In this document: in pieces, positions 5,562-46,064 of the stretch | Layout of the letters: every line of letters starts with the position of its first letter | How positions within the stretch are numbered: the first letter of the stretch is position 1 | DNA from: an uncultured Bacilli bacterium | Lineage (GTDB): Bacteria; Bacillota_I; Bacilli_A; RF39; UBA660 | Assembly (NCBI GenBank): GCA_947628685.1 | Contig: CANRAT010000001.1 | Location: 1-48,480 of the forward strand | Reading direction: 5' to 3' | Length of the DNA: 48,480 nucleotides | Translations under genes and position numbers: made by a program | Notes under the pieces: model-generated | Seen by the model: the letters and a program-made list of their open reading frames with translations, nothing else | Database searches by the model: none | What the model was told of the DNA's origin: nothing

Positions 5562-5591
5562 AAAAAAGAATAGAAAAATCTATTCTTTTTT
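5562..5591 (-). terminator. Rho-independent terminator after the pilin-FGE fusion gene
   Basis: Stem AAAAAAGAATAG (5562-5573) / CTATTCTTTTTT (5580-5591) with a 6-nt loop. U-run on the minus-strand transcript. Confidence 0.6.
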
Positions 5592-7327
5592 TAAGAAAGT
5601 ATTAAACGAAATCCGACGCCAGATGGAATACCACCATGTACATAAAATTGAAATATTCCAACTTTAACATCAGAAACACCTGAGCCTCCGCCTCGAGTGA
5701 CCCAACTAGTAGATTTTTGAACATAGTCGCACTCATCATTATACCATGATAAAGTTTCACCGAATGCTTGTCCATTACAAGTAGAATTTACGCAAACCGA
5801 ATAACTAATATTATCTAAATTATATTTATCGTAATACTTTTCATCTGGTAATTCTGCTTCATTAGTCTCTAGTGTATCATCACTATTTTTTCCATTAAAT
5901 CCTGTCTTTTGTCCGTCTAAACCAACTTTGTCCCCATTAAATACATATGGAATTCCCTCTTTATCAACTGCTACACCCATGACAAACTCTTCAATACCAC
6001 CACTCATATCATATATTCCATATATATTTCCTGTTGTTGATGCTCCTGTTCCACTATTTTTTACGTCATAATGATACGTACCTTCAGTAGTTGAACTATT
6101 TTTTGAGGTCGTTGGAGCACCCAAACTCCTTCCTGTATAATTTCTTGATGAATTATTCGTATATACTTCTTTATTTTCACCTGTATAGGAACTATTGTTG
6201 TATTTACCATACAAACTTTGAGTGAGGTATGCCACTGCTGCCCATTCAATATTTTTACTCATATGTGTATCTATTTTATCTTTATTTAATCCAAACGCAT
6301 TGCCTTCTCTTGACATCGATCTTGAAGCATAAAAGAAATTGGCAACATTGTTATTAGTTAAGGCAATTTGATTAGGTAACACTCTTAATCCGTCAGCGCT
6401 TTCACAATTTTCATTACTGCAATTTAAACTATTAACTTCATTTTTTGATGAAAATGTCGCATGACTTGTCTCAAACTTTCCCATCCAATAACCACTGAGT
6501 TCTTTGCTACCAAATGTAAATGCTGGATGCGTTAACCATCCACTAGGTGTATTCCCATCATATGTTGCAGTTCCGGTATCCTTTGTACTTTTATTTATAA
6601 ATTTTATATCTATTGCTCCTGGATTTGGATAACATAATTCTGAAAACATATTGTTGCAAGCAACACTTTCTCCTTTTGCAGTTGAAGATATAGTGTAAGA
6701 ATATCTTGGTATCCATACAAACATCGCAAGTGCTTCAGGGTCATCACCATCTACAGTGATTTCATCTCCAGAATGTTTTTCAATACCTTTTTTTAATACT
6801 ACTGCGTTAGCCCACCATTGTTCTTGATAAGAGTACCATTTTTCATTCAAATCGGCTATTACCCATGATGATTTATCTTCATCATATATTACTGGATATA
6901 ATCCTTCAAATAATTCGGGATCCGAACCATTTAATAACTCTTCCTTATATGGTATATGCTCTACACATTCATCATTATTTTTTAATTCATATGTATATCC
7001 ATTATTATAATTTATTTGTACACTTTTTAATTCTGTTTGGTCTTCATCTGTATCTGAAAATACTATTGGAGATTTTATATATCCTTCACTTACTAATTCA
7101 CTTAAAGTCACACAATAACTATTTCCATTTTGTTCATCAAATTTATCTTTATTTGAATCTATATATAAATTTGCTGCATTTTCAACTAATTTATTTGTTA
7201 AACTTTTTACTTCTCCTCTTGAATTTGTAATTAAATTTAATACACTTGGAAATACTAAGGTTAAAATAACCGCTAATAAAATCAATACTCCAAGTAATTC
7301 TACTAAAGTAAATCCTCTATTTTTCAT
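5591..7327 (-). CDS. Type IV prepilin-like protein fused to an FGE-sulfatase (SUMF1)-like C-terminal domain
   Basis: N-terminus MKNRG/FTLVELLGVLILLAVI is a class-III prepilin cleavage/methylation motif (G-FTLxE). The C-terminal half has FGE-sulfatase-like motifs: NIEWAAVAYL, GIYDMSGGIEEFV, WVTRGGGS, VGFRLILS. GAGGA RBS. Confidence 0.8.
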   Translation of the reverse strand: MKNRGFTLVELLGVLILLAVILTLVFPSVLNLITNSRGEVKSLTNKLVENAANLYIDSNKDKFDEQNGNSYCVTLSELVSEGYIKSPIVFSDTDEDQTELKSVQINYNNGYTYELKNNDECVEHIPYKEELLNGSDPELFEGLYPVIYDEDKSSWVIADLNEKWYSYQEQWWANAVVLKKGIEKHSGDEITVDGDDPEALAMFVWIPRYSYTISSTAKGESVACNNMFSELCYPNPGAIDIKFINKSTKDTGTATYDGNTPSGWLTHPAFTFGSKELSGYWMGKFETSHATFSSKNEVNSLNCSNENCESADGLRVLPNQIALTNNNVANFFYASRSMSREGNAFGLNKDKIDTHMSKNIEWAAVAYLTQSLYGKYNNSSYTGENKEVYTNNSSRNYTGRSLGAPTTSKNSSTTEGTYHYDVKNSGTGASTTGNIYGIYDMSGGIEEFVMGVAVDKEGIPYVFNGDKVGLDGQKTGFNGKNSDDTLETNEAELPDEKYYDKYNLDNISYSVCVNSTCNGQAFGETLSWYNDECDYVQKSTSWVTRGGGSGVSDVKVGIFQFYVHGGIPSGVGFRLILS

Positions 7328-11261: not shown

Positions 11262-11295
11262 ACATGAAAAAACTTAAGAATTTTAATCTTAAGTT
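11262..11295 (-). terminator. Rho-independent terminator after the pilin-like gene 11303-12379
   Basis: Stem AACTTAAGA (11271-11279) / TCTTAAGTT (11287-11295) with a 7-nt loop. Followed by TTTTCATGTTTTT on the minus strand. Confidence 0.6.
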
Positions 11296-11302
11296 AATTT
11301 AA

Positions 11303-12379
11303 TTATCCTATTCTAAATGTGGGAGCAACCCCGCACGTATTATCAGCACTCTTAGTGTAGTAATTACTACCTGTAGTATTAACGATGTTGAAATAACTAG
11401 TAGCATCAGAAGCAGCCGAGCGCAGCCACCAAGGACTTGCACTATTACTTGTATTTTTTTTAATAGCGCCCCCATAACTATCTGTTGTTACATTTTGTCC
11501 TTTATAATAATCTAATTGTCTTGTATTATCCCATGCTGTGTCATAATTTATTTGATTTGAACTTCCATTCTCCCACACTTCATGTGGTGAGAGTAAATAT
11601 ATTTTATCTGTTGATTCAAGATTATTGCTATCATATTGTCCGTGTCCTGATATTATTTTTGTATCTTTTATACCGTTTTTCAATTCATCTGGTAATGCAT
11701 TATATATTGTGTTTGTTAAATAACTATATAATTCACTTTTTGGCCATCCCCCTGCATTATTATCAGATGAATTCATGTTATATGTAGTTATTATATCTAC
11801 AAATTCTACTACAAATCCACATGCAGTCTCAGAAAAATCATCTCTTTCGCACCCTTCTTTTCCATCTGTTTTATTTGCTATTCTTACTGTATATGATTTT
11901 CCTTCAAACTCTTCTCCTTTTAACGTTATCTCTTTTTCATCTCCTACATTATATTTTTCTGTTGTCCCTTCTCTTACATTCGCTATTATTGTTGCCCATG
12001 AGTCTTCAGAAAGTGATTTTGCTTCTGGTATTGGCTCACAAGTAAATTTTATTGTTTCTTCTTTAACTATTCCATTATTTAGTGTTATACTACCTCCACA
12101 AGGTTTAGAACCTTCTACTTCTACTTTTAATTCTTCTCCATAACAATTTAAATTACCATTACTTTTAACTGTACAAGTTTTCGGATTAAATCCGCTAACT
12201 AAATTTTTTCTTGCTATCGCAAGTTCTATTGCTTTTTCATATAATTCTATACTTCTTTTACTTGTTTCATTTTTTGCATCACTTATTAAATCTAACACTA
12301 TCGGTACAGATATTAAAGCAATTATTGCTAGTATTACTATTACTGCAAGTAATTCTATTAATGTAAATCCTTTTTTCAT
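11303..12379 (-). CDS. Type IV prepilin-like protein fused to a DUF6273-like C-terminal domain
   Basis: MKKG/FTLIELLAVIVILAIIA prepilin motif. The C-terminus (SPWWLRSAASDA ... CGVAPTFRIG) resembles the WLRS...GVRP family. The ORF is open to a GTG at 12388, but the ATG at 12379 with AAGGA upstream gives the canonical short leader. Confidence 0.8.
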   Translation of the reverse strand: MKKGFTLIELLAVIVILAIIALISVPIVLDLISDAKNETSKRSIELYEKAIELAIARKNLVSGFNPKTCTVKSNGNLNCYGEELKVEVEGSKPCGGSITLNNGIVKEETIKFTCEPIPEAKSLSEDSWATIIANVREGTTEKYNVGDEKEITLKGEEFEGKSYTVRIANKTDGKEGCERDDFSETACGFVVEFVDIITTYNMNSSDNNAGGWPKSELYSYLTNTIYNALPDELKNGIKDTKIISGHGQYDSNNLESTDKIYLLSPHEVWENGSSNQINYDTAWDNTRQLDYYKGQNVTTDSYGGAIKKNTSNSASPWWLRSAASDATSYFNIVNTTGSNYYTKSADNTCGVAPTFRIG

Positions 12380-12405
12380 ATACGTCACTATCCTTAAATT
12401 TCTAA

Positions 12406-12435
12406 AATATCATGCCCCCCCCCCCTAAGTGTCAA
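12406..12435 (-). promoter_or_regulatory. Promoter with a poly-G tract inside the -35/-10 spacer (candidate phase-variable promoter)
   Basis: Minus strand reads TTGACA (12435-12430), cttaGGGGGGGGGGGcat (18 nt), then GATATT (12411-12406). An alternative is TGaTATTTT with a 20-nt spacer. An AAGGA RBS and the ATG at 12379 follow. Confidence 0.55.
12415..12425. repeat. Homopolymeric C11 (G11 on the coding strand) tract
   Basis: Counted directly: 6 C at 12415-12420 plus 5 C at 12421-12425. I saw no other G/C homopolymer longer than 5 nt in this very AT-rich window. Confidence 0.95.
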
Positions 12436-12446
12436 TAGAGAAAAAT

Positions 12447-12470
12447 AAAAAACCATGTAAAAAACCATGT
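12447..12470. repeat. Perfect 12-bp tandem direct repeat (AAAAAACCATGT x2) just upstream of the poly-G promoter
   Basis: Units at 12447-12458 and 12459-12470. On the minus strand they read ACATGGTTTTTT x2, starting 12 nt upstream of the -35 hexamer. Confidence 0.9.
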
Positions 12471-12520
12471 TTTAGTAAAATTTTTTTACTTTTAATACTT
12501 TTACCAAGCGCTTTCTTAGT

Positions 12521-12548
12521 ATATAAAAAATTAGGTTTCCCTAATTTT
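12521..12548 (-). terminator. Rho-independent terminator ending the T4SS/rhodanese transcription unit
   Basis: Stem AAAATTAGG (12527-12535) / CCTAATTTT (12540-12548) with a 4-nt loop, followed by a U-run on the minus strand. It lies 17 nt past the rhodanese stop. Confidence 0.65.
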
Positions 12549-12564
12549 CTTGATGAATAATATT

Positions 12565-12852
12565 TTATTCATTTAATATCCAAGCCTCATAACCACCTGA
12601 AACATTTACAACACTATATCCTAAATTTGATAGTATTTGACAAAGTTTTCTACTTTGAATACCTTTTTGACAATATATATAATATTTATCATATTTATTT
12701 AAGTATTTATCAGGTTTTATAAGTAATTGTTCCATTGGAATATTTACTGCATTCATAATATGTCTGTTATTATATTTTTCTACACTTCTTATATCAATTA
12801 AATTAACATAATTTAATTTTTTTAAATCAGTTATAGAAATACTTTCAAACAT
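12565..12852 (-). CDS. Single-domain rhodanese-like protein
   Basis: 95 aa. Active-site loop YCQKGIQS and C-terminal GGYEAW, typical of small rhodanese-domain proteins. Confidence 0.8.
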   Translation of the reverse strand: MFESISITDLKKLNYVNLIDIRSVEKYNNRHIMNAVNIPMEQLLIKPDKYLNKYDKYYIYCQKGIQSRKLCQILSNLGYSVVNVSGGYEAWILNE

Positions 12853-12909: not shown

Positions 12910-14955
12910 TTATTCATCACTGAAGAAGTCATCAAAGAATTGATCGTCAGTAATTTCATCCTTTAATTCTTGTTGTTCATCTGGAGTTGAAGATTGAACA
13001 ATAGAATTATCATTTTCAGAATTATCAATTTCTTGTTTGTTTTCTTGTTCTAATTTAGCCTGTTCTTGTCTTTCTTCTTCTTCAAGTTCTGCTATTTTAG
13101 CATCTATTCTTTTGACTAAATCATCTACATTAAATCCATTATTAGAAGGCATAGGTTCTCCAGGTGACATAAATGGATTAAATGATGGTTCATTTATTGC
13201 AGGTTCTTTATTATCACCATTTAACATGTTATTTATTTTTTCTTCTCTTTTTTTATTAACAAATTCTTTCAAATCAAAAGTCTGAACGGGATTCTTTTCT
13301 CTTTGAGGATAAGGTGCTTTAGGAAAATTATGACCCCAATTCATTTTAAAGTTTGGAGTTAATTTTGTTTTAAAAGGCATTGTCCTAAGCCTCAAAATTA
13401 TAGTTTCCCATTGACTAAGTCTTTGTAAATCACTAACTGTTACTAATGGGGTTGAAGAAGTTTTTTCTTTTTCTTTCGATTTTACTTCTCCACACATTTT
13501 ACTTATTTCTTCCAAAGCAGATAATTCTGTACTTATTAAATAAACTATATTACCACAGTTACCTTTAATAGTTTCCCCATTTTCTTTTCCATAAACTTCA
13601 TATAATTGAGCAAAGTTTTGAATAATAAATGTAAATCTTATATTTCTTGAACGAGCCGCTGTTACCATTGTAGTAACATCTTTTAGTGGAGGCATATTTG
13701 CAAATTCATCAAGAATAAAATTTGTTCTATGAGGTAATTTACCACCTGATTCTTGAGCAACAGAAATTAAAGTTTCATAACACTGTTTTAAAAATATTGT
13801 AACGAGTGAATGGTACGTAGTTTTTTCATCTTGTATAACTATAAATACTGCTGTTTTTTTCCTTCCTATATCACGCATGTCAAAGTCATTATTAGATAAC
13901 ATCTCAGAAAGATTTGCACGTGAAGCGAATAATTGTATCTTTTGTTTAAATACTGAAAGTATACTTCCCTTTGTTTCTGATGGAGCCATAAGTGTTGAAG
14001 ATGCTTTAGTGTATGCTGTTCCTCCTGGGTCTTTATAACTAAAGTAATCTTTAATATATGTTGTGTTTGCTAATTTTTCTTCACCAATTGTAGTCATTAA
14101 ACTTATACTATTTAAATTTATCTCATTTGGATTAGCATCTTCAAATAAAGCACAAGCAAGTCCCGCAAAATAATCGGCAGACGTATTTTCCCAAAAAGGA
14201 TCTTGTCCTTTTGCTTGAGGATCGTGAAGTATATTAGCAGCAAGGTCTTCTAGTAATTCTATCGATTTATCTATATTACCAGATTTGTAAAGTGAGTAAG
14301 GTAAATACATTGGATTCCAAGCATTACCCTGTTGTGGATCACGGAAATTTAATAGAACAATATTATATCCTAAACTTTTTAAATAATTAGCAGTATTTTC
14401 ATATATTTCGCCTTTAGGGTCAGTAATAATCATTGATTCATCGTGCTTAGCAAGCAAATTAACCATTGGTAAAACTGTTGTTTGTGTTTTACCAGCACCA
14501 GTAGAACCTATAACTATATTGTGATATCCGCCATTATCTACCCATACTTTCTTAGGAGTCATTTTAAGTGGTATTCCAGCAGCATCTGCTTTTGGTGCGA
14601 GGGGATCTACTGCTTTAACATCTAACCCATTTTCAATTTCCTTATCTTTAGCCCATCTCGAATAATTTTTTTCCTTTTTTTGTCCAATAGAAAGGCCAAT
14701 TCCAGCACTATCTTCTTTTTCAATAAATACAGATTTAACTCCTGCAAATGCAGCAATTATTCCTGCTAAAAAAAGTATTATAGTAGCCGCTAAATTTTTA
14801 GGAACAAATCCTAAAAACAAATTAATCGTAAAAGGTTCTTCATTTAAAAAGGCTGAAACATTCGCAACTACTAAGGAAACTACAATTAACCAAAAGAAAG
14901 CAAATATACAAAATATAAATACATCTTTCGCTTCTGCTCTAAACCTTAATTTCAT
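12910..14955 (-). CDS. virD4: Type IV coupling protein (VirD4/TraG/TcpA family)
   Basis: Two N-terminal TM helices. Walker A GSTGAGKTQT and Walker B-like FILDEFANMP. Size (681 aa) and architecture are typical of a T4CP. About 80 aa of acidic C-terminal tail ending DDQFFDDFFSDE. Confidence 0.88.
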   Translation of the reverse strand: MKLRFRAEAKDVFIFCIFAFFWLIVVSLVVANVSAFLNEEPFTINLFLGFVPKNLAATIILFLAGIIAAFAGVKSVFIEKEDSAGIGLSIGQKKEKNYSRWAKDKEIENGLDVKAVDPLAPKADAAGIPLKMTPKKVWVDNGGYHNIVIGSTGAGKTQTTVLPMVNLLAKHDESMIITDPKGEIYENTANYLKSLGYNIVLLNFRDPQQGNAWNPMYLPYSLYKSGNIDKSIELLEDLAANILHDPQAKGQDPFWENTSADYFAGLACALFEDANPNEINLNSISLMTTIGEEKLANTTYIKDYFSYKDPGGTAYTKASSTLMAPSETKGSILSVFKQKIQLFASRANLSEMLSNNDFDMRDIGRKKTAVFIVIQDEKTTYHSLVTIFLKQCYETLISVAQESGGKLPHRTNFILDEFANMPPLKDVTTMVTAARSRNIRFTFIIQNFAQLYEVYGKENGETIKGNCGNIVYLISTELSALEEISKMCGEVKSKEKEKTSSTPLVTVSDLQRLSQWETIILRLRTMPFKTKLTPNFKMNWGHNFPKAPYPQREKNPVQTFDLKEFVNKKREEKINNMLNGDNKEPAINEPSFNPFMSPGEPMPSNNGFNVDDLVKRIDAKIAELEEEERQEQAKLEQENKQEIDNSENDNSIVQSSTPDEQQELKDEITDDQFFDDFFSDE

Positions 14956-33426: not shown

Positions 33427-34605
33427 CTATTCGAAAATTATTTCATTTTCTAATTTAGTAGTGTTATTATCACCAGTTAAATTAAAATTATTTTGTACAT
33501 TTTCTTGTTTAATAACATCTTGTTGTTCTTGATCTTCTTGTGCATTATATTCCTCTTTAATAAATCCTGTTGGAAGCGTCACTCCTTGAGTTTCCAAATA
33601 TTCTATCAAATATTTAGATGGATTTTTTCTATAAACCTTACCGTCTGGTGTCTTTTTATAAAGAGTATTATATTTTGCATCATTATCTTCTGTGACGTAG
33701 AATTCAGTAACTTCGGCAATCTCTCTTACAAAATTTTTAGTTACTTTATCTTGATAACCTCTTATATAGACTCCAAGTTGAATATATCTATAAATTGATT
33801 TTAAAAATTGCTCTATATCCTGATTAGTCTCAAGAAGACTATACATACGGTTTGGTATAGATGCTGCTTTATCAGCATGTATTGTAGACAAGATATAATG
33901 TCCTGATGAAATAGAGTTTCTAACTGCCATTACAGCTTCCGCGCTACGCACCTCGGACAAAAGTATCCATTTTGGATTCTGTCTCATACAAGTAACCAAA
34001 ACATCAGAATAACTGGCTATGTTATTTGTTTTCATAGCGACTATATCTCTATTTGGATATATCCTATCCAAGTGAAGTTCAAGTGTATCCTCAATTGTTA
34101 TCAATTTTTCGTTTTCATATGTATTTGCAGCCAAGAACTTAACGAACTCTGTTTTACCTGAGCCTGTCTCACCACAAACAATTATATTGCAATGTCCATG
34201 AACGCAAGTTATCAAAAAATCTAATATATCTTCAGTTATATATTTTTCTTTTAATATCTTATTTCTTTCCAAACGAATTTTAGCAGGTGTTTTACGAATA
34301 ACACATGCAATTCCGTTTCTAGCTATAGAATCGTGTACGAAATTCATACGCAATTCTGCACTTTCGCTATCTAGAAATGGATGGGCAGCATTAAAACTTT
34401 TCCCCATAACATTCGAACATTGAAAAGCCAATTTTTCCATAAAAGCATTATTAATTGCAGGATTTTCTATTCTAAAAATACCTTTTGATAATGTTTTTAA
34501 CCAAACTTGTCCATTATTACTATATGAAATATCGGTAATATCATCGTTATCTAAATATTCTTTTAGTGGACCAAAGTCCATTCCTTCGAATATATTATCA
34601 CTCAT
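33427..34605 (-). CDS. tadA: TadA/CpaF-family secretion ATPase (VirB11 superfamily)
   Basis: Walker A GETGSGKTEF, Asp box ITIEDTLEL, Walker B WILLSEVRS and His box LSTIHA. 392 aa. Confidence 0.88.
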   Translation of the reverse strand: MSDNIFEGMDFGPLKEYLDNDDITDISYSNNGQVWLKTLSKGIFRIENPAINNAFMEKLAFQCSNVMGKSFNAAHPFLDSESAELRMNFVHDSIARNGIACVIRKTPAKIRLERNKILKEKYITEDILDFLITCVHGHCNIIVCGETGSGKTEFVKFLAANTYENEKLITIEDTLELHLDRIYPNRDIVAMKTNNIASYSDVLVTCMRQNPKWILLSEVRSAEAVMAVRNSISSGHYILSTIHADKAASIPNRMYSLLETNQDIEQFLKSIYRYIQLGVYIRGYQDKVTKNFVREIAEVTEFYVTEDNDAKYNTLYKKTPDGKVYRKNPSKYLIEYLETQGVTLPTGFIKEEYNAQEDQEQQDVIKQENVQNNFNLTGDNNTTKLENEIIFE

Positions 34606-38260: not shown

Positions 38261-40747
38261 TTAACGTTTACTACTATTATTTACTGTTACTACATTTCTT
38301 GAAATTAAAGTAGTTAAATAATTGCTTGTACAAATCTTTCCTTCACTATCACATGTCATATTAAAGTCATCGTATGTTGTTCCTGAATTATAATTCCTAA
38401 TTTCTTGAATTGTTTGTGGTGTGAGAGTTATTACATATTTTGGCTCTACTTTTGCATTTGTTTTAGGTATTATCCCATACCTATTTGGTGTATTTTGCAT
38501 TATTGTCTCTGAATATAAATCTTTACCCGTTGATATATATTCATTCATTAATGTTAAATCTGATGCATCAATATTTCCATCTCTATTGATATCGTATTTG
38601 TCTTCTAAAGTATCTATTCTTTCCATTACTATATTGTAATCGCTTGCATCAAATTTACCATCACCATTAATGTCTAGACTATCCATTGTCCAGTTTGTTC
38701 CTGCTTTTCTGGTATTACCACTCTTTCCTGGAAATGAATCTTCTACATCTACACTCCTATATTTTAAATTTAATTCATTATTTAGTATCTCATTAAATAT
38801 ATCATATGTACAAGATGTATTATCGTTTGCTATTGTATTACCTATTGGATCACTTATCCTAAATGGAATTGTTTTTCTAATTGTTGTTGTCTCTGAATCT
38901 AATTTGGTAACATATCCATATCCTAAAAATCTGCAATTGAAACATTGCGTAAATGATGTTTCTCCTGTTCCAATTTTAGAATATACTGAAGGTAGGTTAT
39001 ATAATTTCTTATATGTATATGTAAAAACTGAATATCCACTTCCAGAATATGAATTTGATGTAGTATCTAATAATTCATTTGTTAATTCATTATCATTTAA
39101 TGAAACACTTCCTACATACTTTGAATAATCTTTATTATCTGTAAAATTGTTTGGTGTTCCAAATACGTAACACGTTCTTGTTACCGTTCCTTCTCCTATT
39201 TTAGGTTCTTTTAAGTTTAATAACATTTGACCTGATTTTATCTTTCCAAAATAATGATTATTTGTTATACCTAATACATTTGAAAAATTAAATGTATGTC
39301 CACAAAATGCAGTATAATTATTATTTAAAGTAATTTCTTCTTCAAATCCTGATAAATTATTTTCATTAAAATTACTAATACTAATATCTGCATACATACA
39401 ACCATATTTTTTATTGTAATTTGGTGTCGCATTATTTGTACAAGTTGGATTTGAGAAATCTAAAAGCCCTTTCTTTTTATATTTGTTATATAAAGTTACT
39501 AATTGATTTCTTGTAGGATTAGAACCTAATGATTCTAACTCGCTTTGACAACTTTTTTTATTTGTTACAGTTATACTCTTATCCGAATTGATTAATACTC
39601 TCATAGTTCTTCCACTCATACTTATACAGCCAACACAACTTCCTGCTTCATATCCACTAGGTAATGTTTCTGTTAAAGCATAAGTAATTGTACTTGCTGG
39701 TATACCTGTTATCTCACAAACACCATTAATATTTGTAGTACAAGTCATAGGAGAAATGCCGTTACCACTTAATGTGAATTTAACGCCACTAATAGGACTA
39801 TTTGTTGTACTATCTTTTTTTGTTATTTTTAAAGTATATTTTGTAGGAGTTGGATTATCTCCTGGATCTCCTGGATCGGGTGGATAATCAGGAAAAATAT
39901 CATCAATTATATATTTAAAATATCCGCATCCAGAGTAATCACTTGTTAATCTACCAGTTTGACCACTTCCAGAATTTTGAATAGGGCAAGAACTTTTGCC
40001 TGCTATTTGTAAGGCAGTTGACATTGAACCGTATATATACTGAAAATCTAATCCAGGTGTGCTAGTTGTTGTTGTTTTGCACAAATTGCCTTCAGGACCA
40101 GAATATGCAACATTAAGTCCCATTAAAGCAGTTGATGTTCCAAAATATTTCGCACCATCACAAAATACAAGCGTAACTGGCTCTATTATTATCAAATCAC
40201 CTGATTTAATATTATTAAAGTCATAACCTATAACGCTCAAAACGCCTCTTTGCTTATCTGCTAAATTATAATAAGAATTATCTCTTAAATAATTGTCTAA
40301 ATATGTACCACTACTAGCCGTATCTCTAGTCCAACTATTTCCAAGATTATTTCCATATAAGCAACCTTTAAATTTAACTGTCTGAGCGCTTGTACAACTT
40401 GCAGTAGAGCCTACATTTTTAATTTTGTCATAATCATATCCTGTTGTAGTACAAACCTTAACATCACTTAATTCTCCATAACAATCACCCTTTGAATTTG
40501 CTAGTGCGAAATACCCTTCATTAATTGTTGTTCCATTCCTAATAACTCTTACGCGAATATCATTTAAATAAGGTGATGGCCATTTTGTTGAACTTCCTGA
40601 AGCATCTCCACCAGTTTCTCCACCTGGTGACCCACCTGGAGTATTCTCATCATAAATATCAAACGCTATAGCTGTACTTGTACATATTAAAATGAGTGCA
40701 AACACAATGGATATAATTATTATACATTTTCCTATATTTTTTTTCAT
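38261..40747 (-). CDS. Secreted adhesin-like protein A (Cna-B/SpaA-like domain plus dockerin-like EF-hand pair)
   Basis: Signal peptide. Cna-B/SpaA-like segment KYTLKITKKDSTTNSPISGVKFTL...YALTETLPSGYEA. Dockerin-like segment DINGDGKFDASDYNIVM...DINRDGNIDASDLTLMNEYI. No LPXTG. AGGAG RBS. Confidence 0.75.
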   Translation of the reverse strand: MKKNIGKCIIIISIVFALILICTSTAIAFDIYDENTPGGSPGGETGGDASGSSTKWPSPYLNDIRVRVIRNGTTINEGYFALANSKGDCYGELSDVKVCTTTGYDYDKIKNVGSTASCTSAQTVKFKGCLYGNNLGNSWTRDTASSGTYLDNYLRDNSYYNLADKQRGVLSVIGYDFNNIKSGDLIIIEPVTLVFCDGAKYFGTSTALMGLNVAYSGPEGNLCKTTTTSTPGLDFQYIYGSMSTALQIAGKSSCPIQNSGSGQTGRLTSDYSGCGYFKYIIDDIFPDYPPDPGDPGDNPTPTKYTLKITKKDSTTNSPISGVKFTLSGNGISPMTCTTNINGVCEITGIPASTITYALTETLPSGYEAGSCVGCISMSGRTMRVLINSDKSITVTNKKSCQSELESLGSNPTRNQLVTLYNKYKKKGLLDFSNPTCTNNATPNYNKKYGCMYADISISNFNENNLSGFEEEITLNNNYTAFCGHTFNFSNVLGITNNHYFGKIKSGQMLLNLKEPKIGEGTVTRTCYVFGTPNNFTDNKDYSKYVGSVSLNDNELTNELLDTTSNSYSGSGYSVFTYTYKKLYNLPSVYSKIGTGETSFTQCFNCRFLGYGYVTKLDSETTTIRKTIPFRISDPIGNTIANDNTSCTYDIFNEILNNELNLKYRSVDVEDSFPGKSGNTRKAGTNWTMDSLDINGDGKFDASDYNIVMERIDTLEDKYDINRDGNIDASDLTLMNEYISTGKDLYSETIMQNTPNRYGIIPKTNAKVEPKYVITLTPQTIQEIRNYNSGTTYDDFNMTCDSEGKICTSNYLTTLISRNVVTVNNSSKR
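38268..39885. repeat. Copy 1 of a 1,618-bp direct repeat (3' two-thirds of adhesin A)
   Basis: Matches 40864-42481 at a constant offset of 2,596 bp. The boundaries were read base by base and spot-checked at three internal positions. The ORF-track translations are identical on both strands. Confidence 0.85.
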
Positions 40748-40853: not shown

Positions 40854-43346
40854 TTAGCTTCGCTTACTACTATTATTTACTGTTACTACATTTCTTGAAA
40901 TTAAAGTAGTTAAATAATTGCTTGTACAAATCTTTCCTTCACTATCACATGTCATATTAAAGTCATCGTATGTTGTTCCTGAATTATAATTCCTAATTTC
41001 TTGAATTGTTTGTGGTGTGAGAGTTATTACATATTTTGGCTCTACTTTTGCATTTGTTTTAGGTATTATCCCATACCTATTTGGTGTATTTTGCATTATT
41101 GTCTCTGAATATAAATCTTTACCCGTTGATATATATTCATTCATTAATGTTAAATCTGATGCATCAATATTTCCATCTCTATTGATATCGTATTTGTCTT
41201 CTAAAGTATCTATTCTTTCCATTACTATATTGTAATCGCTTGCATCAAATTTACCATCACCATTAATGTCTAGACTATCCATTGTCCAGTTTGTTCCTGC
41301 TTTTCTGGTATTACCACTCTTTCCTGGAAATGAATCTTCTACATCTACACTCCTATATTTTAAATTTAATTCATTATTTAGTATCTCATTAAATATATCA
41401 TATGTACAAGATGTATTATCGTTTGCTATTGTATTACCTATTGGATCACTTATCCTAAATGGAATTGTTTTTCTAATTGTTGTTGTCTCTGAATCTAATT
41501 TGGTAACATATCCATATCCTAAAAATCTGCAATTGAAACATTGCGTAAATGATGTTTCTCCTGTTCCAATTTTAGAATATACTGAAGGTAGGTTATATAA
41601 TTTCTTATATGTATATGTAAAAACTGAATATCCACTTCCAGAATATGAATTTGATGTAGTATCTAATAATTCATTTGTTAATTCATTATCATTTAATGAA
41701 ACACTTCCTACATACTTTGAATAATCTTTATTATCTGTAAAATTGTTTGGTGTTCCAAATACGTAACACGTTCTTGTTACCGTTCCTTCTCCTATTTTAG
41801 GTTCTTTTAAGTTTAATAACATTTGACCTGATTTTATCTTTCCAAAATAATGATTATTTGTTATACCTAATACATTTGAAAAATTAAATGTATGTCCACA
41901 AAATGCAGTATAATTATTATTTAAAGTAATTTCTTCTTCAAATCCTGATAAATTATTTTCATTAAAATTACTAATACTAATATCTGCATACATACAACCA
42001 TATTTTTTATTGTAATTTGGTGTCGCATTATTTGTACAAGTTGGATTTGAGAAATCTAAAAGCCCTTTCTTTTTATATTTGTTATATAAAGTTACTAATT
42101 GATTTCTTGTAGGATTAGAACCTAATGATTCTAACTCGCTTTGACAACTTTTTTTATTTGTTACAGTTATACTCTTATCCGAATTGATTAATACTCTCAT
42201 AGTTCTTCCACTCATACTTATACAGCCAACACAACTTCCTGCTTCATATCCACTAGGTAATGTTTCTGTTAAAGCATAAGTAATTGTACTTGCTGGTATA
42301 CCTGTTATCTCACAAACACCATTAATATTTGTAGTACAAGTCATAGGAGAAATGCCGTTACCACTTAATGTGAATTTAACGCCACTAATAGGACTATTTG
42401 TTGTACTATCTTTTTTTGTTATTTTTAAAGTATATTTTGTAGGAGTTGGATTATCTCCTGGATCTCCTGGATCGGGTGGATTAAAAATATCATCAATGTT
42501 ATATTGAAAATATCCGCATCCAGAATACTCACTATGTAATCTACCAGTTTGACCACCTCCTTTATTTGTAACAGGGCAAGAGGGTTTGCCTGCCGTTTGC
42601 AAAGCAGTTGACATTATGCTATATACGTTCATAAAATCTGCATATGGTGCGTTAGTTGTTGTAGTATTATTACACTGGTGACCATCCACACCAGAATAAT
42701 TGATATTAGATCCCATTAAAGCAGTCGATGTACCAAAATATCGTACATTATCACAAACAACAAGTGTAGCAGGCTCTATTATTACTTTGTCTCCTTTTTG
42801 TGCATTATTAGCATTATAACCCATGCGATCTAAAACGGTTTCTTTTAAATTTTTATATGAATTATTTTTTAAATAATCGTTTAGATAATTACCATTACCG
42901 GAATCTCGTGTCCAACTATTGCCTAAATTTTCACTATCTAAGGATCCACTAAAATTAAATTGACTTTGTACGTTAGTAGTACAACTTGCATCTTTTGCAG
43001 CATCTGATATTGAATTGTAATTATAACCAGATGTCGTACACACTTTAACTTCTGTTATGTATCCCACATCTTTTAAGTTGTTGTCATTTGGATTTTTTAA
43101 TAAAAAGTATGATTCTTTTAAAACAGAATTACCTCTAAATATTCTTACACGAATAGAATTTAAATAAGGTGATGGCCATCTTGTTGGTTTGCCTGTTCCA
43201 TCTCCATTTCCACCCTCAATAAAAGGACTACCTGGATTATTTTCATCATAAATATTATATGCCAAAACGCTTTTTATACAAATTGTTATTAGTATAAGTA
43301 AAGATATATAAATTATACTTTTTCCTACATGTTTATTAATATTCAT
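40854..43346 (-). CDS. Secreted adhesin-like protein B (paralog of A with a divergent N-terminal ~290 aa)
   Basis: Signal peptide. From PPDPGDPGDNPTPTKY to the C-terminus the sequence is identical to A, except for one extra terminal Ser. The N-terminal region is clearly homologous but diverged. Confidence 0.75.
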   Translation of the reverse strand: MNINKHVGKSIIYISLLILITICIKSVLAYNIYDENNPGSPFIEGGNGDGTGKPTRWPSPYLNSIRVRIFRGNSVLKESYFLLKNPNDNNLKDVGYITEVKVCTTSGYNYNSISDAAKDASCTTNVQSQFNFSGSLDSENLGNSWTRDSGNGNYLNDYLKNNSYKNLKETVLDRMGYNANNAQKGDKVIIEPATLVVCDNVRYFGTSTALMGSNINYSGVDGHQCNNTTTTNAPYADFMNVYSIMSTALQTAGKPSCPVTNKGGGQTGRLHSEYSGCGYFQYNIDDIFNPPDPGDPGDNPTPTKYTLKITKKDSTTNSPISGVKFTLSGNGISPMTCTTNINGVCEITGIPASTITYALTETLPSGYEAGSCVGCISMSGRTMRVLINSDKSITVTNKKSCQSELESLGSNPTRNQLVTLYNKYKKKGLLDFSNPTCTNNATPNYNKKYGCMYADISISNFNENNLSGFEEEITLNNNYTAFCGHTFNFSNVLGITNNHYFGKIKSGQMLLNLKEPKIGEGTVTRTCYVFGTPNNFTDNKDYSKYVGSVSLNDNELTNELLDTTSNSYSGSGYSVFTYTYKKLYNLPSVYSKIGTGETSFTQCFNCRFLGYGYVTKLDSETTTIRKTIPFRISDPIGNTIANDNTSCTYDIFNEILNNELNLKYRSVDVEDSFPGKSGNTRKAGTNWTMDSLDINGDGKFDASDYNIVMERIDTLEDKYDINRDGNIDASDLTLMNEYISTGKDLYSETIMQNTPNRYGIIPKTNAKVEPKYVITLTPQTIQEIRNYNSGTTYDDFNMTCDSEGKICTSNYLTTLISRNVVTVNNSSKRS
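40864..42481. repeat. Copy 2 of the 1,618-bp direct repeat (3' two-thirds of adhesin B)
   Basis: See copy 1. About 70 bp of 5' UTR/promoter sequence (…AACTTTTAATTTTAAAAAAA(A)TGTTGTATAATCAAAATAGGATAGGAG…) is also conserved upstream of both genes. Confidence 0.85.
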
Positions 43347-43505: not shown

Positions 43506-46064
43506 TTAATTTCGTTTATCACTGTTATTTATTGAAACAACACCTTTACTCATTAATAAACTTAAATAATTACTAATGCACACATTTCCTTCGTTTGAAC
43601 AATTTAAATTATAATCGTCATATGAAGTATATGAATTATAATTTTTTATTTCTTTCATTCTTTCTGGAGTTAATGTAATAACATATTTTGGTGATACTTT
43701 CTGATTTGTACTAGGAATAACTCCGTAACTATTTGGTGTAGTCTCTAGTGCATATCTAGCATATACATTATCATAACTACAACTTTCTTTTAAATCTCCA
43801 TTTGAATTTGATAATGCCCAGTTATAAAAAGTTAAATCTTCAGAATTAATTAAACCGTCTTTATTTAAATCATATTTTGAATCAAATTCATTGCTTTCAA
43901 TTGCCGCAGTTAATGCGTCATATGTTATGTCGCTTAAATCTTTACTACACCAATTATTTCCAACTTTTCTTATATTTCCACTTTTACCTGGAAATGCCGT
44001 CTCATAACCATCACTACTCAAACCCCTATATTTTAATTCTAAGTTATTACCTTCAACAATTTCATCTTCAATTTTATAATTACACGTTCCACTATATGCT
44101 GTACTATTTGTCTTTCTAGTGTATGAATTAATGAAGTTAAATTTAAAATTAAATGAAGTTTTATTATTGTATAATTTAGTTATTAATCCATAACCTAAAA
44201 ATTTACAATTTGGACAATTTTCAGTATATACTGTCCCTGCACCATTTTCTGCATATACACGTGGAAGATAATAGTAACCATATAAAGTGCCTTTATAATA
44301 ATTAGATTTATCTACTTGGCTAACAAACATTGTATTCATTCCACCAGGTACATAATAAGACAAGTTTACTATATCGCCATCAAAATTAATTTCTACATTT
44401 TTTATGTAGTCAGAGTAATCACCTGATGCGAATGATGATACATTCGTATCGCCATATAAATAGCACTCTTTTACTACTTTAATATTAAATACATGCCCAT
44501 TTGGCGTTTGAAATATTAATTGTCCAGATTTTGTCTCCCAATCAGTTCCAACATAATTATCGAGGCTGAATGTACTCGCACAATAAGCTGTAAGTCCTAA
44601 AACATCAGAAGTGTCAGTGTAGCAGGATAAATCATTCTCATTAAATCCATTAACTACAAACGAACCTGAAAAGCAACCTGATGTTTTTGAATAATTGCTT
44701 GAGCAGTTTTTAACTGTACAAGATGGATTATTAAAATTCAACAAATTGTTATATTTACTATCATATTTTTTATATAGATCTATCAAATCTTTAGGCTCAT
44801 ATCCATTGGTTTTCAATATTTCCAATTCGTCAGGACAACCCAATAATTTATTTTCTATAGTAACAACTTTATTATATGAATCTATTTTAATATCATGGCA
44901 TGTAGCATCAGCAATATAACCTTTTGGTGCTTTTGTCTCAACTAAAGCATAATTGTCTCCATAAGTTAAGTTATTAAATGTAACTTGTCCTAAATTAGTT
45001 TCTCCTGATACTATCGCTGAGGCATTAGAAATATTATTACAACTACCTTTATATAATTTAAAACTTGCTGAAGATGAAATAAGTTTTTTTGTACTCTTAT
45101 CAACTTTTTTTACAACTAAACTTGTAGTCGTTTTTTTTGTTAAAGTTATTGTTAAACTATTACTTTGTTGTGTGACATTTTTATTTTCTGTATAATTTAT
45201 CGTTAGTGTCTGATAAGCAGAAGTACAATCATAATTAGCTGCAATAGGGACATCAATACTTTGTGAAAGTGATACTGTTACCTTAGTATCTCCTTCTTTT
45301 ACTTTTGATTTAGGTATTTTATATGAAAAAGATGTAGATGTCTTATTACTCATTTGATAATCTGAGCTTGATATTCCGGATATATTGATTGTGTAATTAG
45401 AATTATATGCATTCTCAACTACACCAGATATTGTATAATAATCGCCACTACTACTTTGTCTTAAAGACTTTAAGTTTATTTTATTGTGTACTTTATCATA
45501 AGCTTCTTTAGCTCTTGATTGTGCTACGCTACCGCACTTCTTATTAGTACAATTTTTATCGTCAAAAACAACAGAAGTAGATATACCATCTTTTTGACAG
45601 CTTGGATTATTAGAGTTATTATTATACTTGTATTTGCATAAAAATGCATTAATCGATAATTCTTCTTTAATGTAATCTTCATTCGCTTTTTCTAAAGAAT
45701 TATCTATTTTAAAATAATCTATTATTGCAGCAACTCCTGCTTTTATTTCATCTGACCAATAATTAGAATTGCTAGTATTAGTTATCATAGGACAATCTAT
45801 TCCTTTTGCTGCAGGTGATTTTTTGGAATATGCAGTACAAAAAAGATTATAATTCTTAAATCCATCAGTTGCAGTATAAATATTTTTTTTAAGTGAAGTT
45901 CCCAAGTCTGAGTGTGCTTTATTATTAGTTATTTTATCATATGTAATCTTACCACCAACTTGTTGAATTTGATATAATTTCTCAGGTAAACTAGCAAACA
46001 CGCTTTCTACTTTAAATAATGAAAAAATACATATTACTAATAAAAATTTATACATTCTTTTCAA
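43506..46064 (-). CDS. Secreted adhesin-like protein C (distant paralog of A/B)
   Basis: Signal peptide. Cna-B-like segment TSLVVKKVDKSTKKLIS...YALVETKAPKGYIAD. It shares a Cys-patterned middle region and a C-terminal block with A/B (YDLNKDGLINSEDLTFYN; PKYVITLTPE..KEIKNYNS; NYLS.L.S.GVV.INNS.KR). TTG start 7 nt after GGAGGA. Confidence 0.75.
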   Translation of the reverse strand: MKRMYKFLLVICIFSLFKVESVFASLPEKLYQIQQVGGKITYDKITNNKAHSDLGTSLKKNIYTATDGFKNYNLFCTAYSKKSPAAKGIDCPMITNTSNSNYWSDEIKAGVAAIIDYFKIDNSLEKANEDYIKEELSINAFLCKYKYNNNSNNPSCQKDGISTSVVFDDKNCTNKKCGSVAQSRAKEAYDKVHNKINLKSLRQSSSGDYYTISGVVENAYNSNYTINISGISSSDYQMSNKTSTSFSYKIPKSKVKEGDTKVTVSLSQSIDVPIAANYDCTSAYQTLTINYTENKNVTQQSNSLTITLTKKTTTSLVVKKVDKSTKKLISSSASFKLYKGSCNNISNASAIVSGETNLGQVTFNNLTYGDNYALVETKAPKGYIADATCHDIKIDSYNKVVTIENKLLGCPDELEILKTNGYEPKDLIDLYKKYDSKYNNLLNFNNPSCTVKNCSSNYSKTSGCFSGSFVVNGFNENDLSCYTDTSDVLGLTAYCASTFSLDNYVGTDWETKSGQLIFQTPNGHVFNIKVVKECYLYGDTNVSSFASGDYSDYIKNVEINFDGDIVNLSYYVPGGMNTMFVSQVDKSNYYKGTLYGYYYLPRVYAENGAGTVYTENCPNCKFLGYGLITKLYNNKTSFNFKFNFINSYTRKTNSTAYSGTCNYKIEDEIVEGNNLELKYRGLSSDGYETAFPGKSGNIRKVGNNWCSKDLSDITYDALTAAIESNEFDSKYDLNKDGLINSEDLTFYNWALSNSNGDLKESCSYDNVYARYALETTPNSYGVIPSTNQKVSPKYVITLTPERMKEIKNYNSYTSYDDYNLNCSNEGNVCISNYLSLLMSKGVVSINNSDKRN

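Follow-up and report, generated by a model that had tools for sequence, protein, structure and literature searches.

Does an uninterrupted run of 11 guanines in the promoter of a gene for a pilin-like surface protein act as a phase-variation switch in an uncultured gut member of the Bacilli? The original prediction for this locus proposed that it does, on the grounds that slippage in the tract would alter the distance between the -35 and -10 elements. In the following, the window is the whole stretch of DNA analyzed (48,480 nt). Promoter and gene coordinates are window positions, on the minus strand unless stated.

Promoter architecture and the G11 tract

The promoter and its surroundings consist of the following elements:

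12521-12548, minus: terminator-like hairpin with U-run, ending the upstream rhodanese gene (dG -10.7 kcal/mol, z -4.3)
12447-12470, minus: two direct copies of ACATGGTTTTTT (sequence reading)
12436-12446, minus: ATTTTTCTCTA, between the ACATGGTTTTTT repeats and the -35 (sequence reading)
12430-12435, minus: -35 hexamer TTGACA (sequence reading and promoter scan)
12426-12429, minus: CTTA between the -35 and the tract (sequence reading)
12415-12425, minus: G11 homopolymer, C11 on the plus strand, inside the promoter spacer (homopolymer census)
12412-12414, minus: CAT after the tract (sequence reading)
12404-12412, minus: extended -10 TG-a-TATTTT (TG 12412-12411, TATTTT 12409-12404), 20-nt spacer (register conserved among paralogs)
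12406-12411, minus: alternative -10 GATATT, 18-nt spacer (10 of 12 matches in the promoter scan)
12391-12395, minus: ribosome-binding site AAGGA, 11 nt 5' of the ATG (sequence reading)
12379, minus: ATG of the pilin-like gene (sequence reading)
11303-12379, minus: pilin-like/DUF6273 gene, 358 aa (Pfam and AlphaFold model)
11262-11295, minus: terminator-like hairpin with U6, 3' of the pilin-like gene (dG -8.3 kcal/mol, z -2.7)

From the -35 onwards, the order is TTGACA, CTTA, G11, CATGATATTTT, AAGGA, and ATG. Sequence reading and the promoter scan agree with the predicted placement of the tract within the -35/-10 spacer, a position to which both the motifs and their conservation among paralogs and orthologs point, and the ribosome-binding site and start codon are present as proposed. 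Immediately 5' of the -35, the two copies of ACATGGTTTTTT and the adjoining ATTTTTCTCTA form a T-rich, UP-element-like stretch; a single copy of the ACATGGTTTTTT motif occupies this side of the -35 in the paralogous promoters L081, L091, and L098. The window has a GC content of 26.9% by base count, and a homopolymer census upheld the claim that G11 is its sole G/C run longer than 5 nt, the next longest being four runs of 5. Base frequencies predict about 8 × 10⁻⁵ runs of 11 or more in the window, which places the tract far above chance, and its length exceeds the roughly 8 nt from which an uninterrupted homopolymer can slip.

A hairpin followed by a U-run stands on each side of the gene, which makes the predicted monocistronic reading a reasonable one, and the upstream hairpin shields the promoter from read-through. 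Both hairpins are missing from the list of a stricter terminator scan because they contain few G-C pairs. A role of the tract at the RNA level was considered and rejected as unlikely, because the promoter-region RNA folds no more stably than its shuffles (z -0.06), an Rfam search returned no match, and the -10 lies downstream of the tract.

A modular pilin-like protein with a DUF6273 module

The gene is predicted from its domain matches and modeled structure to encode a modular type IV pilin-like protein with a C-terminal DUF6273 module. The prepilin-like and DUF6273-like character that had been read from the sequence was borne out, as both the N_methyl profile PF07963 (28.1 bits, cut-off 21.2) and the DUF6273 profile PF19789 (65.2 bits, cut-off 23.5) match above their Pfam cut-offs. 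The N-terminus carries the class III (prepilin) signal peptide MKKG|FTLIELLAV, with the G|F-x-x-x-E prepilin motif and a hydrophobic helix. The AlphaFold model (mean pLDDT 85.6) consists of an N-terminal helix of 55 residues (7-61), a small sheet formed by strands within residues 68-111, and a globular C-terminal domain spanning about 128-357. Its sole significant fold match in the PDB is 9qa6, the IgA peptidase of Thomasclavelia ramosa, whose N-terminal domain is a DUF6273 domain (PMC12402451). DUF6273 has been described as C-type-lectin-like and, in phages, as a target of diversity-generating retroelements (DGRs; PMC10743442).

The protein family is very large, with 6229 matches among 8000 candidates scored. 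Exact look-ups of the window protein and of the NCBI-only homologs P0003, P0004, and P0007 gave no match.

Modular type IV pilins are established in Gram-positive bacteria, for example PilB and PilC of Streptococcus sanguinis, in which an N-terminal pilin module carries a grafted C-terminal binding module. The window protein shares with them the class III signal peptide, the pilin module, and the C-terminal binding module. It differs in that the grafted module is the C-type-lectin-like DUF6273, and linkage to a pilus operon is not established for the window gene. To our knowledge, a promoter poly-G is not a described feature of modular Gram-positive pilins.

Genomic setting of the window

The window is chromosomal, as it contains SmpB, RNase R, RmuC, FtsW/RodA, ScpAB, and tRNA-Leu. 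A long minus-strand block of type IV secretion-like genes ends with the rhodanese gene, and the pilin-like gene lies just beyond it. Besides the coupling protein and ATPase listed here, the block comprises an M23 peptidase, a VirB4-like ATPase, and a TrbL-like protein, followed by three large SpaA-fold proteins:

12910-14955, minus: coupling protein of the type IV secretion-like block
33427-34605, minus: T2SSE-family ATPase of the same block
5591-7327, minus: another protein of 578 aa, whose sole Pfam domain is an N_methyl prepilin motif

The second N_methyl gene is located downstream of a histidine kinase gene, and no G/C tract precedes it. The scanned open reading frames of the window gave no match to a prepilin peptidase. 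At the far end of the secretion-like block, two near-duplicate proteins of about 830 aa (38261-40747 and 40854-43346, minus) show SpaA-fold and dockerin-like matches at identical coordinates, and the third SpaA-fold protein (43506-46064, minus) adjoins this pair.

Two contigs of the same species, L082 and L089, carry the identical rhodanese gene and terminator hairpin, followed by a thymidylate kinase gene in place of the pilin-like gene (compare window 12520-12565). Thymidylate kinase has no match among the scanned open reading frames of the window. This exchange, together with that absence, makes the junction near 12520 a possible segment boundary; it may delimit a segment that has moved or been rearranged, perhaps the type IV secretion block.

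Alleles and paralogous promoters within the species

An identical rhodanese protein led to 10 low-coverage ENA contigs of the same species. Downstream of the rhodanese gene they fall into three alleles, and further contigs represent paralogous promoters:

Allele A (window, L088): TTGACA-CTTA-G11-CATGATATTTT
Allele B (L081, L086, L087, L090): TTGACA-CGTA-G11-CGAGGTAAAAT (CGAGG-TAAAAT)
Allele C (L083): TTGACA abutting TGATAATAT; same promoter and gene, no tract
Paralogous locus 2 (L091, L098; two alleles): TTGACA-CGTA-G10-CATG[GT]-TAGAAT, with G10 in both
Paralogous locus (L095): TTGACA-CCTA-G11-CGTGATAAAAT (CGTGA-TAAAAT)

Allele C has lost the 17 nt of CTTA-G11-CA and carries three substitutions nearby. 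In another paralog, L097, the promoter is an ordinary one that lacks a tract. At least three paralogous loci of the species carry G10-G11.

These alignments bear on the choice of the -10. The element common to the aligned same-species promoters is (TG)nTAnnnT, located 5 nt past the tract, with TAGAAT and TAAAAT in the paralogs; the extended form TGnTAnnnT is seen in the window, L091, L095, and L098. As this position is conserved, its counterpart in the window is the TG-extended TATTTT, with a spacer of 20. The original prediction had placed GATATT at a spacing of 18 first and named TGaTATTTT at 20 as the alternative. GATATT does match in the promoter scan, but its register is not conserved in the paralogous promoters, and the alternative is thus favored.

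At the window locus, the tract is G11 in all six assemblies that span it (the window, L088, L081, L086, L087, and L090), which represent at least two diverged alleles, and no strain-to-strain difference in length with constant flanks was found among these six assemblies (2-4x coverage, one study). Together with the G10 of both locus-2 alleles, the consensus length looks stable in this species. Since every spanning assembly has G11 and one allele lacks the tract, we infer switching at the window locus and do not observe it there.

Of the low-coverage contigs, several (L084, L086, L088, L090, L095, L096, and L080) stop inside the tract or no more than about 45 nt from it, the end of L084 falling inside. 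We rejected these breaks as evidence of length heterogeneity, since low coverage and a repeated promoter cassette explain them equally well. They could also be taken as a sign that sequencing or assembly has produced the tract artificially, a caveat already raised in the original prediction; two-color chemistry, for instance, can yield spurious poly-G. However, the presence of the cassette at three or more loci, combined with low coverage, accounts for the breaks just as well, and the tract is internal, has unique flanks on both sides, and is reproduced at homologous positions in independent samples, studies, and assemblers. We therefore regard the tract as genuine and an artefactual origin as extremely improbable.

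A separate set of six contigs (L099-L104), reached via the downstream WG-repeat protein, all break in the 3' part of the pilin-like gene (equivalent to window 11303-11900), and two of these breaks coincide with the start of a shared variable-region scaffold, CTGCGCTCGGCT. They are most simply explained by repeat collapse among paralogs. We discarded breaks inside the variable region as a signal, as they coincide with scaffold sequence common to the paralogs.

Recurrence of poly-G promoters in other species

A cross-species set of 80 loci (445 kb) from species-representative genomes contains 11 G/C runs of at least 7 nt. Relative to the matched gene, each of the 11 has its G's on the sense strand, and nearly all lie just 5' of a gene for a pilin-like or other surface protein. 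At least eight other gut Bacilli/Mycoplasmatota-like MAGs share the poly-G promoter design, always with G on the sense strand. The relatives are uncultured gut Bacilli MAGs labeled variously as Tenericutes, Mycoplasmatota, or 'Clostridium sp. CAG:524'. Representative promoters of this set are:

L014: TTGACA-6-G12-TATACT, spacer 18
L046: TTGACA-8-G11-CATAAT, spacer 19
L012: TTGCCA-8-G11-TATAAT, spacer 19
L069: TTGACA-11-G6-TATAAT, spacer 17
L015: interrupted G-rich spacer GGGGAGTGGGG, 18
L016: interrupted G-rich spacer GTGATGGTGG, 17
L032: related promoter with the same -35/-10 and an interrupted or absent tract, GGGGGAGGGGG

TTGACA is kept in every same-species poly-G promoter and in L014, L046, L069, and L105-L120. 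The total spacer is confined to 15-20, although the non-G flank varies from 6 to 9 nt. L051 shares the flanks of L046, lacks the tract, and is 2 nt shorter. A spacer of 17-18 bp is retained by promoter versions whose tract is interrupted, absent, or shorter (L015, L016, L108, L115, L069), and, judging by their sequence, the interrupted G-rich spacers of paralogs are apparently locked versions of the proposed switch.

The genes 3' of the tracts encode pilin-like proteins with various C-terminal parts, a camelysin/DUF285 protein, a ConA-like lectin protein, and a DUF6273 protein with another N-terminus. The non-pilin surface genes stand behind the tracts of L003 (552-559), L008 (2339-2345), and L012 (3374-3384), and their products are camelysin-like/DUF285, DUF6273 with a different N-terminus, and a ConA-like lectin (Laminin_G_3).

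A second class of tract was also seen, exactly G9 in length and 130-150 nt 5' of a pilin-like gene (L036, L042, L053, L072, L074), with TTAGCA or TTAACA 10-13 nt upstream; the leaders of L036 and L042 contain a hairpin and a T-run. These G9 tracts do not fit a simple -35/-10 spacer.

In all poly-G promoters (window, L003-L120), the G's are on the sense (non-template) strand, never as poly-C. The orientation may stem from shared ancestry of the promoter cassette, from a mutational bias that favors one strand, or from contact with RNA polymerase.

Searches in other collections gave a 51-nt match at chance level in the plasmid collection. Scanning for the -35 plus tract pattern returned three matches in JGI metagenomes, all unrelated and in contigs of 55-70% GC, and none in viral contigs.

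Tract-length polymorphism in an orthologous human gut promoter

Closely related strains were available for the human gut relative represented by L014, in which the locus is arranged in the order SpoVS, poly-G promoter, pilin-like DUF6273 gene, Avd-like protein, template repeat, and reverse transcriptase. As the SpoVS homolog search alone was too unspecific for same-species contigs, two common variants of the Avd-like protein were used in a cluster look-up, yielding 20 human gut metagenome contigs. The TTGACA...TATACT promoter is reached by 10 of the 20, and L014 was added to the comparison; L116 spans the upstream region of its own gene, where this motif is absent. The promoters compare as follows:

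G9: L107, spacer 15
G11: L109, L119, spacer 17
G12: L014, L105, L118, L120, spacer 18
G13: L106, L117, spacer 19
Interrupted: L108, GGGAGAGGGA, 18 bp
Interrupted: L115, GGGGAGGGGGA, 18 bp

The uninterrupted promoters read TTGACA-AAAGT[CT]-Gn-TATACT, and all nine have the same -35, -10, and post-tract sequence. Their spacers range from 15 to 19 with a mode of 18, and within one upstream haplotype the tract varies from 11 to 13. For contigs with a stated coverage, the values lie at roughly 9-156x. Tract length thus differs among close strains in homologous promoters of one class. Variation confined to the run, constant flanks, and a modal length equal to that of the apparently locked forms together make up the classical signature of a slipped-strand contingency locus. 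The strain comparison called for in the original prediction accordingly has two outcomes, as length varies in the orthologous promoter (G9, G11, G12, G13), while the window locus is G11 in every assembly spanning the tract. For this species, the six assemblies thus agree with the uniformity among strains that the prediction had named as a refuting outcome.

Directly 5' of the -35, two unrelated haplotypes replace each other over about 40 nt between L105 and L106. Four human gut contigs start about 330-350 nt 5' of the promoter, which suggests structural polymorphism at that position upstream of the human gut poly-G promoter.

The length data also bear on whether the G-rich spacer could be a fixed functional element, selected for its composition and not its length, with length polymorphism elsewhere being incidental. 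Such an element could be a regulator binding site; alternatively, a rigid run of G's could fix the geometry of the promoter or interact with RNA polymerase through the non-template strand. A fixed element would account for the single length seen at each locus of this species (G11 in six assemblies, G10 in two), for the invariable sense-strand orientation, and for interrupted versions that are still strongly G-rich in genomes of about 27% GC. However, alleles and paralogs without a tract or G-rich spacer keep the -35/-10 or the gene (L083, L051, L097), lengths of 9 to 13 in one set of flank haplotypes are hard to square with a site of defined length, and interrupted G-rich spacers are the expected remains of a pure tract after point-mutational decay. 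We consider a fixed element unlikely.

A model for promoter-spacer switching

Based on promoter sequence and its comparison across relatives, we postulate that G11 is probably a simple-sequence contingency locus in the promoter spacer that controls expression of the pilin-like gene. The promoter would be of the sigma-A type, composed of the T-rich upstream stretch, TTGACA, a mostly-G spacer, and the extended -10 TGaTATTTT, and would drive a single gene. Its product would be a surface protein in which a type IV pilin-like anchor carries the C-type-lectin-like DUF6273 as its binding domain. During replication, slipped-strand mispairing would add or remove G's, altering both the distance and the rotational phasing between the -35 and the -10, and hence promoter strength. 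Judging by the locked paralogs, and by the length most common in the well-sampled relative, the promoter would be expected to be fully active with a spacer of about 17-18 bp. The assembled state of the window (20 bp, or 18 bp with the weaker GATATT) would then be low or OFF and would turn ON after the loss of 2-3 G's; the other assembled spacers of the species (19-20 bp) would likewise be low or OFF if the optimum is 17-18. Because several paralogs have their own G-run, a population could express different combinations of them.

The predicted phase-variation switch thus gains from recurrence in relatives and from length variation in the orthologs, while variation at the window locus itself was not seen. 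There, the switch reading follows from homology of the promoter class; frequent changes in tract length and a resulting effect on transcription would be expected by extension. Several observations weigh against it. The window locus is G11 in every spanning assembly and locus 2 is G10 in both alleles, at the low coverage of a single study. The usual optimum of a -35/-10 spacer is 17±1, and the predicted spacers of the species (19-20) lie outside it. A TG-extended -10 might render the spacing to the -35 unimportant, and a pure spacer-length model does not demand the strict preference for G over C on the sense strand.

The extended -10 raises a further alternative, namely that the tract is hypermutable but functionally neutral, the TG-extended -10 being sufficient and the tract persisting through duplication of the promoter cassette with the gene family. 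The presence of TGnTAnnnT in the window and three paralogous promoters is consistent with this, as are spacers of 19-20, which are poorly suited to use of a -35, and the tract-less L083, which retains TGATAATAT directly after TTGACA. Yet a perfect TTGACA is conserved across species while its surroundings diverge, the total spacer is restricted to 15-20 and that of the locked forms to 17-18, promoters of the L014 type carry the tract without a TG extension, and a neutral G run of 11 nt should erode in a genome of 27% GC. We accordingly give a neutral tract little credence and retain spacer switching as the preferred explanation.

Connection to diversity-generating retroelements

Like known targets of DGRs, the window gene has a C-type-lectin-like domain, and its C-terminal variable region contains NNY codons, which alignment with the paralogs places on a conserved scaffold:

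11321-11431, minus: DGR-style variable-region-like 3' end, GC-rich scaffold TGGTGGCTGCGCTCGGCT ... GGGGTTGCTCC with NNY codons

A template repeat within the window was considered and rejected, as no repeat of the variable region was found in its 48 kb, and the scanned open reading frames gave no RVT_1 match to a reverse transcriptase. Compared with the template repeat of L095, 29 of 49 mismatches of the window variable region are not at adenines, and the variable region is identical in six further contigs (seven with the window). The window gene is a relative of DGR targets and not a demonstrated active target.

Complete systems are found close by. L095, from the same species, has a complete target-Avd-TR-RT cassette in which 25 of 27 mismatches between the variable region (1087-1204) and the template repeat (1942-2060) are at template adenines. 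L006, L069, and L073 likewise have a downstream template repeat and variable-region mismatches at adenines, and L014 and L105-L120 contain complete target-Avd-TR-RT cassettes with adenine-specific VR/TR mismatches. In the human gut relative, the variable regions differ in 12 of 12 strains and nearly all mismatches are at template adenines, so that its retroelement is active. Within 4.2 kb of L105, the poly-G promoter gives the highest-ranking promoter match, and the interval from the target gene to the template repeat contains no detected terminator-like site. In the cassette-borne members (L014, L105-L120, L095), the poly-G promoter is the sole strong promoter 5' of the target, Avd, and template repeat, with no terminator detected ahead of the repeat; the cassette may therefore be under the poly-G switch, and retroelement activity could thus itself be phase-variable.

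We tentatively envisage a two-layer variation of pilus-presented, lectin-like adhesins across a clade of uncultured gut Bacilli/Mycoplasmatota-like organisms with small genomes, in which poly-G switches would select among paralogs and DGRs would rewrite the tip; we hold this to be possible but the less probable case. In gut Bacteroides, type V pilus adhesins are described as diversified by DGRs (bioRxiv 10.1101/2024.11.15.621889). In the accounts given by that preprint and, for phage DUF6273 targets, by PMC10743442, these systems resemble the window gene in their C-type-lectin-like domain and C-terminal variable region, and the Bacteroides adhesins additionally in presenting a binding domain on a pilus-type anchor in gut bacteria. 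As portrayed there, they differ in host (Bacteroides versus Bacilli) and anchor (type V versus type IV pilin-like), and, unlike these targets, the window copy lacks both template repeat and reverse transcriptase within 48 kb, and its variable region is invariant in seven contigs. A homopolymer promoter switch is not reported for the Bacteroides and phage systems in the searchable literature, and our literature search found no paper in which DGRs occur together with type IV pilins or with phase variation by homopolymers. A survey mentions in passing a G-type pilin domain among rare DGR targets.

Relation to known switch systems and biological meaning

Promoter-spacer homopolymer switches are textbook knowledge for a few cultured pathogens (Neisseria, Mycoplasma). 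In Mycoplasma hyorhinis, each member of the vlp surface lipoprotein family has a poly-A tract in its -35/-10 spacer. The resemblance to the poly-G promoters lies in a paralogous surface family in which individual members have their own spacer homopolymer, allowing combinatorial ON/OFF states, and in hosts that are phylogenetically nearer (Mollicutes-like Bacilli). The differences are poly-A instead of poly-G, and lipoproteins with repeat-length size variation instead of pilin-like proteins with a DGR-type variable region.

Promoter-spacer phase variation of porA (poly-G) and opc (poly-C) in Neisseria meningitidis is an established mechanism (van der Ende et al. 1995; Sarkari et al. 1994; references 24 and 32 of PMC5084427). 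According to that secondary account, a G/C homopolymer of about 9-15 nt likewise separates the -35 from the -10 of a surface protein gene, and its length differs between strains. There, spacing sets promoter strength, as proposed for the window promoter, and expression was measured against length, whereas the window promoter is known from sequence alone. In the same account, the neisserial genes encode outer-membrane proteins of a Gram-negative pathogen; the window system belongs to an uncultured low-GC gut Bacilli/Mycoplasmatota-like host and concerns a pilin-anchored, lectin-like protein of a DGR-targeted family.

In the literature searched, we found no description of promoter-spacer homopolymer switches in the abundant uncultured low-GC gut Bacilli of animals or humans. 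The mechanism itself has been established; what appears undescribed is this clade, this gene family, and the pairing with DGR targets. Reads for detecting tract heterogeneity within populations already exist in high-coverage Hadza metagenomes, and the link to DGR targets offers a system in which the joint action of two hypervariation mechanisms on a single adhesin family can be tested directly. The occurrence of the design on many surface genes (pilin-like, camelysin/DUF285, ConA-like lectin) suggests that commensals, too, vary their surface through classical contingency loci, plausibly in response to host IgA, phage, or diet glycans.
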